Source: Octopus vulgaris (Eukaryota). From it: DNA of 64,000 bases. Below, piece after piece: positions 12,746-58,864 of the stretch; the first letter of the stretch is position 1; the number at the start of each line of letters is the position of its first letter. The notes under the pieces are model-generated. The model did no database searches. It was not told where the DNA came from and saw only the letters and a list, made by a program, of their open reading frames with translations. The stretch spans positions 83,700,001-83,764,000 of the forward strand of contig OX597826.1 in NCBI GenBank assembly GCA_951406725.2, read 5' to 3'. The translations under genes were made by a program, and so were the position numbers.

Positions 12746-12814
12746 AACAGACCTCATTTGTTAATTTTTTTCATAAATATATTTATTATACATTATATTA
12801 TACATTATATTATA

Positions 12815-15631
12815 AACTGCTAAGGGCCACTGACCAGATCTGTGGATGGTGCAAAATCCCCTCTCGACCCAAGGTAATGTGGTGGTGGAACAATGTGGTT
12901 GACAGGGCTATTAGACAAAAGAAACAGGCTTGGAAGAACTGGAAGAATGAAGGTAGCAGGGAATTGTATCAGACTGCCAAAAGAAAAGTTAGGAGACAGG
13001 TCTATTTAGCCAGAGGGGAAGCAGATAAGAAGAAATTTGCCAATGTTCTGCGCCGTGAGGACCAAAGACTTGAGGTGTTTCGTGTTGCAAGACAGTGTGT
13101 GAGAGAGAATTGTGATGTCGTAGATGAGAAATGTGTCCGTATGGTTCACTTGCACTAAACGAGGCTGCAAAGAGAGAGGTTTGGAGACGCCACTATGAAA
13201 GGTTGCTCAATAAAGAGAATGAATGGGAGAAAGAGAGTCTGCTGAATGTCGACCCAACAGAGAGACCAGCTATCCGTGTTGACAGTACCTTGGTAGATAA
13301 AGCAATCAAGAGTATGAAGGCAGGGAAAGCCCCAGGCCCATCAGGAATCACTGCAGAGATGCTCAAAATATCTGGCAGTGTTGGCTATACCCTAGTCACC
13401 CATAAAGTTAACCAGGTGATACATGAAGGAGTCATATCCAATGACTAGAGTACCAGCACCATAGTCAACTGCTACAAAGGTGAAGGTGATGCTTTAGATA
13501 TAAATAATTACAGAGGTATCAAGTTGTTGGATCAGGTAATGACGGTCACGCAGAGGGTCATAGCCCAACTAATTAGAGAGAGAGTCAGTTTAGATGAGAT
13601 GCGGTTTAGGTTTGTGCCAGGGAAAAGCACCACTGATGCTATATTTCTGGTAAAACAGCTGCAGGAGAAATACCTAGCCAAAGATAAACTTCTGTACCTG
13701 GCTTTCGTTGACTTGGAGAAAGCCTTTGACAGGATCCCCCGATCCCTTATCTGGTGGTCAATGAGGAAACTAGGGATAGATGAATGGTTAGTGAGAGCTG
13801 TGCGAGCCATGTACAGGGATGCCATCAGTAAAGTGAGGGTTGGCAACAAGTACAGTGAAGAATTCTAGGTAGAGGTAGGGGTCCACCAAGGTTCAGTCTT
13901 CAGCCCCTCCTATTTATCATAGTTCTCCAGGCAATAACAGAGGAATTCAAGACAGGATGCAACTGGGAGCTCCTCTATGCTGATGACCTTGCTCTAATTG
14001 CTGAGTCACTTTCAGAACTAGAGGAGAAGTTTCAGGTGTGGAAGTGAGGATTAGAATCGAAGGGCCTTAGAGTCAACCTAGCTAAAACCAAAGTCCTAAT
14101 AAGTAGGAAGGTAGACAAACCACAAACCCCTTCAGGTAGATGGCCCTGCTCGATCTGTAGAAAAGGTGTAGGTAGAAACTCTATAAGATGTACCCAGTGT
14201 AAGCTATGGACACATAAGAGGTACAGCAATGTCAAAGGAAGGCTAACTGGGAAGATAGTTTTTGTATGTGGCAGATGCTCAGGAGTAATAAACACTGAAA
14301 ATGCACAGAGACCAACTTCCGCCACATTCCAGGGAGAAAAACTAGAAGTAGTTGATAGCTTCCGTTATCTAGGTGACCAAGTCAGTAGCGGGGGTGGGTG
14401 TGCTGAAAGTGTAGCTGCTAGAATAAGAATAGCTTGGGCTAAGTTCAGAGAGATCTTACCTCTGCTGGTGACAAAGGGCCACTCACTCAGAGTAAAAGGT
14501 AGACTGTATGATGCATGTGTATGAACAGCCATGCTACATGGCAGTGAAACATGGGCCGTGACTGCTGAGGACATGCGTAAGCTCACAAGGAATGAAGCCA
14601 GTATGATCCGATGGATATGTAATGTCAGTGTACATACTCAACAGAGTGTAAGTACCCTGAGAGAACCTAAGAAGCATCAGTTGTGGTGTGCAAGACAGAC
14701 GATTGTGTTGGTATGGTCATGTGGCAAGAATGGATGAAGATAGCTGTGTGAAAAAGTGCCACATCCTAGTGGTTGAGGGAACCTGTGGAAGAGGTAGACC
14801 CAGGAAAACCTGGGACGAGGTGGTGAAGCATGACCTTCAGACATTAGGCCTCACGGAGGCAATGACTAGTGACCGAGACCTTTGGAAATATGCTGTGCAT
14901 GAGAAGACGTGGCAGGACAAGTGAGACCATAATGCATGGCCTTTACCAGGGATGTAGCCAGCCCACTTATGCATACCTTTCCTTCTTTGGACACAAAACT
15001 CTGCTTGCAAAGACCTTTTGAGGCAAATGAAATCGAAATTGAATTCGAAATCAAACCGAATTCGACAACTGGCACCCATGCAAACCTCCCTTCATTGGAC
15101 ACTAAACTCTGCTTGCGAAGACCTGTTGGGGCAAGTGAAATCGAAATTGAAATAATTCGATGACTGGTACCTGTGCCAGTGGAGTGCTAACAGCTCCATC
15201 CGAGTGGGATCATTGCCAGAGCAGCTGTCTGACTTCCATGCCAGTGGCATGTAAAAAGCACCATTTGAACATGATCGTTACCAGCATCGCCTTACTGGCA
15301 CTTGTGCCAGTGGCACGTAAACAAAACATTCGAGCGAGGTCATTGCCAGTGCCACTTGACTGACTCCTGTGCAAAGGGGCATGTAAAAAACACCATTTCG
15401 AGCATGGCCGTTGCCAGTACTGCCAGACTGGCCCTCATACCAGTGGCACTTTAAAAGCACCCACTACACTCTCGGAGTGGTTGGCATTAGGAAGGGCATC
15501 CAGCTGTAGAAACTCTGTCAGAGCAAATTGGAGCCAGGTGCAGTCATCTAGTTCGCCAGTCCTCAGTCAAATCGTCCAACCCATGCTAGCATGGAAAGCG
15601 GACGTTAAACGATGATGATGATGATGATGAT
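12815..15631 (+). mobile_element. 5'-truncated RTE-clade LINE: RT pseudogene, structured 3' UTR and (GAT)n tail
   Basis: Motifs WWWNNVV, KAPGPSGITAEML, NYRGIKLL, STTDAIF, FVDLEKAFDRIP, GVHQGS, YADD (13976-13987), FRYLG, GSETW, RRLCWYGHVARM, GRGRPRKTW; several stops and frameshifts; ends GGACGTTAAACGATGATGATG. Confidence 0.95.
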
Positions 15632-48140: not shown

Positions 48141-50325
48141 GCAAAAATCTGTAAAACTTTTCAGAAGTTTATCATTTAAATATATATGAGCATGTCTAGA
48201 TATGCAACTATATGCATGAGAATGCATGCATAAAACATACAATGCACATACATACATACATACATATAAACAAACAAACAAAAATACTCTGTTGTTGATG
48301 TTGAAATTCCAATGAAGGAATCTTGGATCTAGGTTAGAAACCGGTTCTTTCTCTATTGGCAAGAAATCTTGAAATAAACTGAATAATGACATACATACAT
48401 ACATACATACATACATACATACATACATACATACATACATACATACATACATACATACATACATACATACATACATACATACATACATACACACACATGC
48501 ATGCATACACACATATATACATGCATGCATACATAGATACATGCACACGCATCATCATCTCTCCTAAGGACTCACAGTATGTAAAAGCACTCGCAATTAT
48601 ATTGTTGACAAGCAAGAACGGTGTTGCTTCGGCTGTCGGAACTGCCAAGTCGTGTTATTTCCTCCCAGACTACATCTGTTCATCACACACACACACACAC
48701 ACACACACATAATGCCTAAATTGTTCAAGAAGTTGACAATGTCTGGGTTGCTTCTTTGGTTGGTGGTTAGAGCCATGAGCACAGCATGGCCTGCTTTTCC
48801 ATTTCTTGCATCATGGAATCTGCCTTGTTGATGCCATCAATACATCTCTGCAAGAGAAAGTTATAATTTGGCACATTCCACATAGCATTACATTTACAAC
48901 CTGCAAAAGTTTATCAATACACACCCAGAACACACCTGCCTGTGCATGTGTGTGTGCATTCACATGTAACAAATAAATGCTGCATGAAGTGCGAACAAAA
49001 ATGAGGTGGTCTAGGCTGGATTGCTTTTTTCTTTTGCTTTTTTTTTTTTGATCAATATTGTCCCAGGCCGAAACAACAAAGCCCAAAACATGTCCTGATT
49101 ATTTGAAGCAGGGCACTGAAGTAGCACAAACAACAGTGTTGAAATGTTTCGTTTTATTTACCTACAAACCTTTGTGTTGTAGGTTCAAGTTCCCTCGAGG
49201 TTGGCACTGCCATATGTTTTTGTTTTGAATCTCTTCAGTATTGATAAAAATAAGCTCAAATCCTATACTAGAACCAAATCTCTAAGACTCTTCCTCTGCC
49301 AGTATTATTAGTCCGGTGCCAATGTAAGAAACCATTAATCTACATTCTGTCCATTTCCCTTCATAATGTTCTGTGGGGTCAAGCATTGGCTTTATTCTAA
49401 TTCATTGGGACCATAAAGCACGGTCTAGATGCTGCTGGCCTCCCTTCCCAGTGGGGCTAGACCAAGGCAATGGTAAAAGACCTGACAGTATGACAACTTT
49501 TCCAGTCTGGGGTGGTAGGCTCCTCACCTGGAAGGTCATATTCTCTGACACCTTCTCCAGTAGTGTGTTCAGCTTCTGACCCTGGCTCCACTGCTTATCA
49601 GGCTGAGAGTATTGGTCATTTTCTAATAGGTTTGTGGTCGATCTTGTGGCAGTGGGAACCTCTGGGCATTCTTGACCCCAGGACCAGATTTTTGCTTGCT
49701 CCTATCAGGGTGCAGATGGCTATCTGCAAGCGCAAATCCCCATGTGTCCGAGTGGCTGGTCCAGTGTATCTCCCTTGTCATCCTCAGAGGACTATGAGGT
49801 GAACTGGCAAGCCATTTTAGATATTTCTTTGCTCTGAGGAAGAGGAAAGGTAAGATGATTCCGACAGGGCCCTTCATCAAATTTATAAAATCATTTCATT
49901 AAACATTTTAATTTTGCCGACCACTGAGGCAGAAATAGACTGGAAACCCTTCCCTGAACTACATCTTCTCTTTCCCATAAAAAAAAACATGTTTGGCTTT
50001 GTGTCAATGCAAGAGGTCTTCATTTAATAGAGAGAGAAGATATCGCGGGGCAAGGATGGAAATAATTTGATTTTTAACAAAACATTTCGTTAAAACAGAA
50101 TGGTTGGAATGAAGTATTGAATGATATTAGCCAAGACCTCCTTTTTCGAATAAGCTGAGACAATATGAATTGAAATTCAAAGTATTTCATTTGTATTTCA
50201 TTTTGCATTGTTCCAGCCTTGTCTCAGAAGTTGTTTAGCCCCAGGTCAGTCCCGACCCAGTGGAGGAAAGACACTCCACATGGAACCATTCTGGTCTGCA
50301 TTCATTGCTCAATGTATCCATTTTT

Positions 50326-50433
50326 ATTTGCGCTATGGCGGTACATATTGTACAATTCGAATGATACAGAGAAGATTGGCATGGCCCCTGCACAAGGATG
50401 ACACGCAAATTTGTGAAGTGTTCCATATTTTTT
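50326..50433 (+). pseudogene. U6: U6 spliceosomal snRNA retro-pseudogene, essentially full length
   Basis: Gap-free alignment to canonical U6: CGCTATGGCGGTACATAT...GATACAGAGAAGATTGGCATGGCCCCTGCACAAGGATGACACGCAAATTTGTGAAGTGTTCCATATTTTTT. ACAGAGA box at 50366-50372; AGC triad changed to GGC; CpG transitions; no TATA box near -30. Confidence 0.96.
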
Positions 50434-50592
50434 CACTACACTCTCGGAAGCACATCCAGCTGTAGAAATACTGCCAGATCAGATTGGGGCCTGGTGTAGC
50501 CTCCTGGCTTCCCAGACCTCAGTCGAACTGTCCAACCCATGCCAGCATGGAAAATGGATGTTAAACGATGATTATGATGATGATGATGATGA
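50434..50592 (+). mobile_element. RTE LINE 3' terminus fused directly to U6
   Basis: CACTACACTCTCGGA...CATCCAGCTGTAGAAA...CCAACCCATGCCAGCATGGAAAATGGATGTTAAACGATG(AT/GAT)n matches the RTE ends at 15462-15631 and 43088-43256. Confidence 0.93.
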
Positions 50593-51332
50593 CAGAATTG
50601 TGTAAACTGTGGAAGTTTTGGTTATTTCTAGCAGATTGAATGACTCATAGAATTTATCCTTGGTTCATTGCTGCAAAGTTTACTCAATTTGTATGAAGTG
50701 TTTGGCTTCTTTGAAATTCTCTGTCACAGACTGGCATCACTGTTGGCATGGTGGACAAAATGCTTAGCAGTGTTTCACCCATCTTTATATTCTGAATTTT
50801 TAGGTTGATAAAATAAGTACCAGTCATGTACTGGGGTCACTGTAATCGACTTACTCCTACACCTGAACTAACTGGATTTCTGCTAGAATTTGAGACCAAT
50901 ATTCCATGTAAAGAAAACGGCTCAATTCTGCAAATACTGATGTTGCTGTTTCATCCCAAGCCTTTGATAGTAATAACACTGTCTTTGACAGTAATAACAC
51001 TTTCCTTTTATCTTAAGACGTTAGTAAAGGATTTTAGGAAACTTTGGCTGCTGTTTCTAATGGATCTATCACCTTTGTAGAGGCCAATTTGTTGCCTCGT
51101 ACAAATAGTTGTTATTAAACTGTGGTCAGCTCTCACCAACCAGAACTATGACCAAAGCCATTCAAGTGACCATTTGAATGATATAAGGGTGTGTGTGTGC
51201 ATGCATGTTGTGTGTATGTGCATGTATGTGTGTGTACATGCATGTGTGTGTACATGCATGTGTGTGTGTGTGTGTATACTGAAGCATGACTGCAGCTGCA
51301 ATGGCTGGCATGTATAAAAACAAATCAAAGAA

Positions 51333-51690
51333 TAGCTGTGTGGTAAAAAGTTTGCTTCCCAACCACATGGTTCCAGGTTCAACCCCATTGTGTGGCACCT
51401 GATAATGATCAAACCCTTATGAGTGAATTTGAGAGATGGAAACTGAAAGAAGCCCACTGCATGTGTGTGTCTGAGTTTGTGTTTGTCCCCCACCACCACT
51501 TAACAATCTGTGTTAGTTTGCTTACTTCTCTGTAACTTAGCAGTTTGCCAAAAAGAGACTGATATAAGAAGTATCAAGCTTAAAGAAAAACAACCTAAGT
51601 CCTGGGATCGATTCATTCGACTAAAAGTTCTTCAAAGTGGTGCCCCAACTTGGCCACAGTCTAATGACTTAAACAGAAAATAAAAGACAC
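51333..51690 (+). mobile_element. SINE family B
   Basis: Head GCTGTGTGGTAAAAAGTTTGCTTCCCAACCACATGG and a diverged tail. Confidence 0.85.
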
Positions 51691-51828: not shown

Positions 51829-52140
51829 TAAATATAAATTAGATTAGAGATAAAACCACTATTAGGCAAATCAAACAGTGAAAAACATAAACCAAAACAT
51901 AAAAATAAAAATAATTAATATAATATACAAAATATATAAAATTTAAAAATTTAAATTTAAAATTAAAATTATTAATTTATATTTATAAATTAAATATAAA
52001 TTAGATTAGAGATAAAACCACTATTAGGCAAATCAAACAGTGAAAAACATAAACCAAAACATAAAAATAAATATAATTAATATAATATACAAAATATATA
52101 AAATATAAAATTTAAAATTAAATTAATTTAAATTAAAAAT
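51829..52140. repeat. 162-bp AT-rich tandem duplication (about two copies)
   Basis: TAAATATAAATTAGATTAGAGATAAAACCACTATTAGGCAAATCAAACAGTGAAAAACATAAACC occurs at 51829 and 51991. Confidence 0.9.
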
Positions 52141-52261
52141 TTTTAATTTATATTTATAAATTTTTATATTTTTTAATATTTTTTAATTTTAAATTTATAA
52201 ATTTTTAAACTTTTAATTTTTTAATATTTATATTTATATATACATATATTTTATATATAAC

Positions 52262-57329: not shown

Positions 57330-58512
57330 GAGCCACTCACACATACGTCCACGCACACAACAAGCTTCTACATAGTCTCTGCCTACTAATTTACAGTCAA
57401 GCTGAGGAGGCTAATACCATGTAAACAGAAAGCCAGTTCCAGCCATGACCATCTCACCTAAATATATATATATCAAGGATTATAGTATCAGATTCTTCTT
57501 CATCTTAGACAATGGAGTGTGATTTTAACAAGATTTAACTGCTATTTTTAGTAGATTTAAGCAACCACCTCGAGGTTCCTGGGTTGGTTCAGGGCTCCAA
57601 GCTAAATGCTGCAGGATGTTCTTTGATTAAACCTCAGCGCCGGCTTTAAAATAGATAAGAACAGGAAAAAGCAAGAAATAAAAACTAAATTTTATCTGCA
57701 AAACTGAGACTGGCAGAAGTTTGTTGTGTGAAGTGTTTATATTTTGTTTTCGGTGCTGCCTCATTTCTGAGATAATCTTTTATCTTTATATTATTTGGAA
57801 GAAAAAAGAAGTCTTGGAGGTCTTCACTACAACTGGCAAATTTGGTAAAGCGCAATATCTGTAGAGAGGGCAGATTTGGATTGGGTTTTCTTTCAAAGGA
57901 TTATTTTTAGCTTTATGGTTAACCTAAGAGTAACTGAGAAGATATCAAGTGTGTGCACACACACACACACACACACACATGCACAGACACGCATGTGTGC
58001 ACATACACATACACACAGGCATTCATACACACACATGTACATAAACACACAAACACATGGACTTACACACACACACACACCACATTCGCATACACACACA
58101 CAGCTGTACACATTTACACATGTACACACACTGGGGGAGTAAATTAAGACCATCAAACTGTAGGCATACGGTTTTTAAGTTCATGTCCAGTTGAAGTCAA
58201 GATTTGTACTCTTTGACAAGATCTTCATCACTACTTGCACAGCATATAAGATAGTGACAAAACATACTTAAAATTGGGAAAATAAATCTAAGAATATTGA
58301 TCAACAGCTGACCCCAAACTGCTATACTACCCCCACTACCCAACACCTTGTACCATGAAGAAAAGGTCACATGGCTTACAATGTTTGTGTATGAGGTTAT
58401 ATGTTTTTACTAGTTTCAGGCCATGCTGGAGCTCTTTGGTGTAACCATATTTGGAGAGTTGGATATTGATTTATATAAAGCATGGAAGGAAAGAAGAGAA
58501 ATAAAGAGAAAA

Positions 58513-58817
58513 GAAAGTGGGTGACATGGTGACAACTTACCACATGGAGAAAGTGGGTGACATGGTGACAACTTACCACATGGAGAAAGTGGGTGACATG
58601 GTGACAACTTACCACATGGAGAAAGTGGGTGACATGGTGACAACTTACTACATGAAGAAACTGGGTGACATGGTGACATCTTACCACATGGTGACAACTT
58701 ACCACATGAAGAAACTGGGTGACATGGTGACAACTTACCACATGGAGAAAGTGGGTGACATGGTGACAACTTACCACATGGAGAAAGTGGGTGACATGGT
58801 GACAACTTATCACATGG
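58513..58817. repeat. 36-bp minisatellite, 8 units plus one extra 18-bp sub-unit
   Basis: Unit GAAAGTGGGTGACATGGTGACAACTTACCACATGGA starts at 58513, 58549, 58585, 58621, 58657 (54 bp), 58711, 58747 and 58783. Confidence 0.97.
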
Positions 58818-58864
58818 CGAATTCAAAGAGTTAAAACTGTATAAAATATAAAAATAATCATAAT

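Follow-up and report, generated by a model that had tools for sequence, protein, structure and literature searches.

U6 snRNA joined to the 3' end of an RTE-type LINE in Octopus vulgaris: a chimeric insertion and its siblings across the genome

The window considered here, that is the whole stretch of 64 kb that was analysed, starts at C13:83,700,001 of the Octopus vulgaris assembly, and the genome searched comprises 2.8 Gb in 227 contigs. At the locus under study a U6 snRNA copy is followed directly by the end of a LINE, and the unit lies inside an old interspersed repeat, here called family X. The features, with a reference copy of the LINE found elsewhere in the window, are listed below.

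50267..50325, + strand: left half of family X, the old interspersed repeat that served as insertion target (positions 27-105 of the profile; score reached by 2 of 300 shuffles)
50332..50433, + strand: U6 snRNA retrocopy of the variant A type, with its first 6 nt absent or unmatched and six T at its end (RF00026, 95.7 bits)
50434..50566, + strand: terminal part of the 3' UTR of an RTE-type LINE, by alignment with copies in the window; no extra base and no microhomology at its start; 16-nt deletion after 50448
50567..50592, + strand: (GAT)n tail of the LINE, read from the sequence, with an equal tail in other copies
50592..50645, + strand: right half of family X (positions 115-171 of the profile; score reached by 0 of 300 shuffles)
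12810..15631, + strand (5' end approximate): decayed reference copy of the LINE with reverse transcriptase (RT), PHD-like finger, 3' UTR of about 700 nt and (GAT)n tail, by translation (RVT_1, E 2.8e-10 and 1.2e-8)

The U6 part was recognised by Rfam model RF00026 at 50330-50432 (95.7 bits, E 1.8e-23, model positions 1-105), the sole Rfam match that reaches the gathering score within the 64-kb window. The initial annotation had described an essentially full-length, gap-free U6 between 50326 and 50433. The absence of gaps and the end at 50433 were confirmed, but the start was not: since five of the first six bases mismatch both gene variants A and B, U6 homology begins at 50332. Across positions 7-108 the copy aligns with gene variant A without gaps and with 9 differences, against 12 for variant B, and five of the nine would be, judged by eye, CpG-type transitions. 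Upstream of the copy there is no U6 promoter context, and the genome holds no second copy of the locus; it is therefore a dead pseudogene, valuable as a record of RNA-end chemistry.

The 159 nt that abut the six T without spacer (50434-50592) match LINE 3' ends elsewhere in the window at 80-87%, and copies in the genome at up to 95%, in good agreement with the approximately 160 nt of RTE 3' terminus and (GAT)n tail annotated initially. U6 and LINE tail lie on one strand throughout, again as annotated, and the 3' tail of the LINE is retained. The 16-nt deletion already noticed at this place is visible in the alignment to the window copies, where it sits between two GGA words. In parent copies of the LINE the base before the junction position is C rather than T, and one upstream 8-mer is common to 49 of 73.

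Concerning the identity of the LINE, the window copy ending at 15631 ties the 159-nt tail to an element with RVT_1 matches, and one sibling chimera (L253) aligns to this copy in one piece, from the RT region through the tail. Protein relatives have a single open reading frame of about 1,050-1,100 aa with AP endonuclease (PF03372), RT (PF00078) and PHD-like finger. The tail is a short tandem repeat, (GAT)n, and not poly(A), which is RTE-like. The partner fits the RTE type (RTE and RTEX taken together) by its architecture and its motifs, the label being one of architecture and not of phylogeny; no clade names accompany its relatives in the protein databases. Identity with the published RTE-2_OV was considered and could not be established, the 3' UTR of RTE-2_OV being described as mostly microsatellite, unlike that of the partner LINE. 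Two further traits of the reference copy may be mentioned: a 66-nt tandem repeat of variable copy number in its 3' UTR (14980-15460), inside which many truncations and U6 junctions fall, and a PHD-like zinc finger directly after the RT core (13871-14650), present also in many database relatives.

Siblings of the locus were searched for with a 27-nt pattern of the U6 3' end, found at 231 places in the genome (control 0). The first 100 of these 231 ends, from contigs C1-C8, were fetched and 99 were classified, partly by hand. Eight proved gene-like and 91 dispersed, and 86 of the 91 dispersed ends have a retroelement partner in sense orientation. The dispersed ends were distributed as follows.

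SINE heads joined at their 5' start: 39 of 99 ends (28 SINE B, 8 SINE A, 3 other SINE-like, two of these three by eye)
Short two-hairpin CR1-type tail: 26 of 99 ends
Penelope-like repeats: 12 of 99 ends, at 9 loci
RTE: 6 of 99 ends, with varied junction points
Truncated SINE B: 2 of 99 ends
U6-U6: 2 of 99 ends
Other CR1-type end: 1 of 99 ends
No recognised partner: 3 of 99 ends

Chance would produce 0.06-0.18 adjacencies per partner class. For RTE about 0.06 are expected among the 99 ends and 6 were seen. The proposal of a chimeric retrocopy, with the U6 T-tract joined directly to an RTE 3' end, is thus supported. RTE is a minor partner of U6 here, SINEs, the CR1-type tail and hammerhead-bearing Penelope-like repeats being commoner. 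It should be noted that SINE A, SINE B and similar names are working names and that the tRNA origin of these SINEs was judged by eye from A and B boxes, ARAGORN calling none. The U6 part of the chimeras is generally near full length, 81 of 109 starting within 10 nt.

The genes from which such copies derive are of two kinds. Variant A forms seven tandem copies on C1, preceded by TATA-like sequence, and variant B is also present. The two, located at C1:139,422,600-139,429,800 (L035-L039, L052, L053) and in L062 and L064, differ in the 5' stem-loop; the A array has a spacing of about 1.1 kb, and both variants have been retrocopied. In one retrocopy (L044) the copied sequence extends beyond the end of a variant A gene as far as its second T-run. 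Two others (L119, L161), counted among those without partner, have nothing after U6 but some 12-15 nt similar to the 3' terminus of SINE A; by eye, L119 has apparently a short target site duplication (TSD).

The two-hairpin tail forms the 3' terminus of a LINE that possesses an RT frame and would be, by its motifs, a CR1; SINEs B and D end with it as well. When copies of this tail were read, 6 of 30 began at one common point without U6 and 2 of 30 with U6. In a set from C1 (L182-L211) the tail measures about 45 nt with two hairpins and is represented by 7,745 exact 29-mers; its 5'-truncation hot spot is common to solo copies, to U6 chimeras and to the start of SINE D homology. A ribozyme was looked for at this hot spot and in the SINEs, and no Rfam match was obtained in 8 loci. 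A twister-like look of the 3' part of SINE B, noticed by eye, was given up, as the starts of two truncated junctions deviate by 5-8 nt.

U5 served as control for the preference for U6. Among 26 Rfam matches to U5, 23 lie in gene clusters and 3 are dispersed, while the exact U5 27-mer, a pattern that lacks the CpG degeneracy used for U6, has 1 dispersed match out of 23. Capture is thus biased to U6, with 91 of 99 ends dispersed. Two of the three dispersed U5 copies are fused to full-length SINEs (L250:1500-1750 and L252), one U5 being full length and the other cut at base 76. U5 genes occupy three tandem clusters on C25 (3.88, 32.67 and 33.36-33.39 Mb).

In the Penelope-like class the inverted U6 pairs represent U6 joined to fold-back repeats in (TA)n, and most insertions turn inside U6. 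Directly upstream of the junction, parent copies contain a predicted minimal type I hammerhead made of the core, helix II, GAAA and a short palindromic helix III; helix I, whose pairing spans the cut, varies from family to family. At 11 loci of six families, listed here family by family, the U6 T-tract abuts the predicted cut without extra base.

L079, L134, L164, L282
L135
L140, L335/336
L144
L151
L173, L324

One of these (L324) has one internal mismatch, and L282, L324 and L335/336 were read after the hammerhead idea had formed. A scan for the motif gave 11 occurrences in the 0.93 Mb examined and none in reversed sequence. Rfam Hammerhead_1 scored one motif at 22.6 bits, below its cut-off of 34, and the folding energy of three parents was no better than that of shuffles (z from -0.2 to -0.9), so that the hammerhead assignment depends on the motif and on helix I and not on stability. 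U3-A8 replaces C3-G8 in several cores, which is a compensatory change. In the L173 family (L312, 23.1 bits, cut-off 22.6) a GIY-YIG frame is present upstream on the same strand, in the L140 family (L274) one is near but not contiguous, and none was seen in the other four families. Two loci deviate, one with its junction about 43 nt beyond the predicted cut (L328) and one with a junction 2 nt off or unclear in a family whose core is non-canonical (L175). The tracing of parents covered the AT-rich partners apart from five (L319, L323, L329, L330, L333/334), and two of the seven matches of one genome pattern search were due to chance, with no U6 present. The window itself holds, at 51829-52258, an AT-rich tandem and inverted repeat similar to an arm of the L140 family.

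As regards the joining at the locus under study, our preferred reading, to which we assign a probability of about 0.5, is that the near full-length U6 and the last 159 nt of the LINE entered the genome in one retrotransposition event, after RtcB had ligated the cyclic-phosphate end of U6 to a broken LINE RNA. The LINE RNA would break within its 3' UTR and leave a 5'-OH; U6 ending in U>p would then be ligated to it, a step suggested by human work and by the siblings at hammerhead sites. The LINE protein would bind the 3' tail of its own RNA, begin reverse transcription at (GAT)n and carry it across U6 to within about 6 nt of the end, which corresponds to the product present in the sequence, and the copy would have integrated into the old repeat, where it is indeed found without TSD. 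The junction is clean, with six T, no extra base and no microhomology, and about 6 of 9 assessable RTE siblings are likewise templated from the first base. Moreover the genome carries genes of the USB1 family (PF09749) and of RtcB (PF01139).

Hammerhead cleavage leaves a 5'-OH end. Because the hammerhead cuts supply such an end, the chimeras at hammerhead sites fit ligation, even if a precise jump of the polymerase would look alike; the capture of U6 by four unrelated classes of elements would be explained in one step by a host ligase. It is known that human U6/L1 chimeras have about 4-8 T at the junction, that RtcB needs U6>p and a 5'-OH, a triphosphate end having yielded 0 of 26 full-length products (PMC6789731), and that it ligates hammerhead products in vitro (PMC7229834). 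For the locus itself ligation is favoured only slightly, since its junction is internal, clean and without microhomology, like those of most RTE siblings.

Several observations stand against ligation. The biggest class of siblings (39 of 99) has its junctions at the 5' starts of SINEs, which are expected to bear a Pol III 5'-triphosphate. Template jumping is indicated by U6-U6 junctions onto base 1 (L113, L118), by the two U5-SINE chimeras and by a tRNA-U6 junction, and on the assumption of a 5'-triphosphate on SINE RNA the SINE-start, U6-U6 and U5-SINE junctions fit it better. In addition, an RT jumping at a cleaved 5' end would yield an equally clean junction, two hammerhead-family loci (L328, L175) deviate from the predicted cut, and the locus is without TSD. 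The multi-part chimeras concerned are tRNA-Lys(CTT)-U6-U6 fragment (L113:1366-1560) and U6-U6-CR1-type tail (L118).

It is possible, at rather less than even odds, that the single insertion was joined by end-to-end template jumping: the RT would reach the 5' end of the broken LINE RNA, add an A (or G), pair with the U-tract of U6 and continue. This one mechanism would serve all partner classes whatever their 5' chemistry. The SINE chimeras begin at the 5' boundary of solo copies (17 of 18 solo SINE A have AA before the head), and their leaders vary from 2-6 nt in SINE A (14 read) to 1-9 nt in SINE B (33 read). In 109 chimeras the first base after the T-run is A in 58, C in 45 and G in 6, and the run is about one T shorter before C; such an excess of C after a shorter T-run is what untemplated purine addition to the cDNA would give. 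The R2 enzyme is reported to append untemplated bases and to jump nowhere but at the 5' end of a template (PMC8594491), and human U6 5' ends are described as gamma-methyl capped (PMC5855946), yet in L118 U6 is joined to base 1 of another U6. However, the junction of the locus and the 11 junctions at hammerhead sites have no extra base, the strong bias for U6 over U5 is less directly explained by jumping, and the flank of the source copy could itself be the template for the extra bases at SINE heads. Taken together, the junctions suggest that RNA ligation and template jumping may both be at work in the octopus genome.

Both routes presuppose that U6 and LINE end arrived together. The reverse situation, a U6 pseudogene hit later by an RTE fragment at its T-tract, or the two events in the other order, is improbable in our opinion. 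In its favour are the lack of a TSD flanking the unit, where one was looked for and none was found, the preference of elements in the octopus genome for A/T-rich sites, and one sibling with a possible partner-only duplication (L148; 1 of 96). However, TSDs are equally missing from solo copies of this LINE, in which duplications of at least 10 nt were counted in 2 of 95 against 0.8 by permutation, with crude boundaries; the missing TSD at the locus is thus normal for the element, and no TSD of at least 10 nt was found in 8 U6-RTE chimeras. Among the 96 siblings, whole-unit TSDs of at least 10 nt occur in 6, mostly SINE A, against 0.33 by permutation; this count rests on 96 of the 109 ends with a partner and overlooks L033, in which a duplication of 16 nt was recognised by eye. 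Two independent insertions are also at variance with the 6 RTE adjacencies seen where about 0.06 are expected, with the fact that every partner is in sense and exactly at the U6 T-tract (no antisense partner among 142 U6 3' ends), and with the few dispersed ends that have no recognised partner (3 of 91).

Finally, family X continues only past the whole unit, in accordance with the interruption initially annotated. Its profile was built without the locus under study and has 59 matches; the two halves (27-105 and 115-171) are collinear across the unit, the right one resuming about 10 profile positions after the end of the left one. The family was found by profile search only, the left flank having appeared unique by a BLAST-type search, with scores within shuffle range. 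We conclude that the locus is very probably a single chimeric insertion of a near full-length U6 and a LINE 3' end in sense.

The initial annotation had left two options for this insertion, a one-off chimera or a member of a SINE-like family, and the first one stands. The junction pattern of the locus has a single match in the genome, the locus itself, and no second copy was found among 40 scored candidates. The pattern of the 16-nt deletion occurs at 29 places, 28 of them other RTE copies, and in the 15 of these that were read U6 is never present; since the deletion recurs in RTE copies without U6, it represents recurrent slippage. U6 is joined to the RTE-type LINE in 10 of 142 distinct U6 3' ends, at distances from about 60 nt to 2.1 kb from the LINE tail, and all 10 junction points differ, indicating repeated and independent chimera formation, as had been anticipated for variable junctions; at least four further U6-RTE junctions were found besides. 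Having an external promoter, U6 cannot drive a copy that it heads. An amplified family of SINEs made of U6 and an RTE tail, for which only the architecture of small-RNA head and LINE tail speaks, is hence extremely unlikely, the junction being unique, the deletion recurring without U6 and each main partner being found with both U6 gene variants.

Comparison with known systems places the locus, taken alone, in a known class, because U6/RTE chimeras have already been reported in a lizard. Doucet 2015 (PMC4476161) describes U6 chimeras with L2 and Mon-1 of platypus and with RTEX-2, L2 and AnolisSINE2 of Anolis, as well as an opossum RTE chimera without TSD; partners of the RTE-like, L2 and SINE types being on record in vertebrates, novelty in kind is not supported. 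As in those vertebrates, stringent LINEs and their SINEs capture U6, TSDs are short or absent and stand-alone U6 retrocopies are few. The octopus differs by the larger scale (231 exact 3' ends) and by U6 parts that are mostly near full length, and the accessible account of PMC4476161 contains no junctions at the beginning of SINEs, at one hot spot of a CR1 tail or at the hammerhead cuts of Penelope-like repeats.

The locus also resembles the mammalian U6/L1 chimeras (Moldovan 2019, PMC6789731; Law 2025, PMC11838501) in having a near full-length U6, a short T-tract, sense orientation, a 5'-truncated LINE with its 3' tail and a unique junction. The architecture is therefore alike, as proposed initially, while the partner is an RTE-type LINE, with (GAT)n instead of poly(A), no TSD and an invertebrate host, so that it is not U6/L1 in the strict sense. 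SINE partners dominate in octopus, whereas human U6/Alu chimeras are called rare. With the snRNA-headed SINEs named SINEU (Kojima 2015, PMC4494074) the locus shares an snRNA head on a LINE-derived tail, but the octopus junction is single-copy and not amplified.

For the Penelope-like elements, the minimal hammerheads previously described (Cervera and de la Pena 2014, PMC4209133; Frangieh 2024, PMC11167929) have likewise a type I core and a short palindromic helix III and sit in terminal repeats; their nearby GIY-YIG frame has its counterpart here in the L173 family. These reports mention weak in vitro activity and a lack of evidence in vivo, or an absence of RNA-seq reads that end at the cut. 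Unlike in them, U6 marks here the predicted cut in genomic copies of six families, in siblings and not in the studied locus. Literature searches on U6 in cephalopods, or on U6 chimeras with SINEs, template switching or invertebrates, returned nothing, most subscription journals being outside their scope, and those on Penelope-like elements with hammerheads and RtcB returned nothing about U6 by title or beginning of abstract. The word 'snRNA' is absent from PMC11167929, from a 2026 retrozyme preprint and from a 2026 octopus repeat paper; the octopus paper does contain SINE families with the labels U and U-L1, and these may be such chimeras named automatically. As far as this search reaches, the known class takes here a new form, with Penelope-like partners at predicted hammerhead cuts and SINEs at their starts.

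By itself the single locus extends a vertebrate phenomenon to a mollusc. The set of chimeras touches two questions that the sources leave open, namely the route of U6/LINE joining, where ligation and template switching are both still considered (PMC11838501), and the in vivo cutting by Penelope-like hammerheads (PMC4209133, PMC11167929). Both are testable from junction sequences and a few assays, because the 5' chemistry of the partners is predictable: 5'-OH at hammerhead cuts, triphosphate at SINE starts and a cap at base 1 of U6. Tentatively, and with somewhat more doubt than belief, we propose that U6 tags free RNA 5' ends across the genome in the germ line of the octopus, with RtcB sealing U6>p onto the hammerhead 5'-OH of Penelope-like RNAs and onto broken LINE RNAs, and RTs jumping onto U6 from intact SINE 5' ends. 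The chimeras would then be fossil evidence of in vivo cleavage by minimal Penelope hammerheads, and this genome the first in which ligation and jumping are separated by partner class.

Other repeats of the window were observed near the locus and further away. Just 3' of it, and separate from it, lie an old SINE A copy and a SINE B copy (50720-50900 and 51315-51690), and a minisatellite array with units of 36/18 nt occupies 58511-58821.
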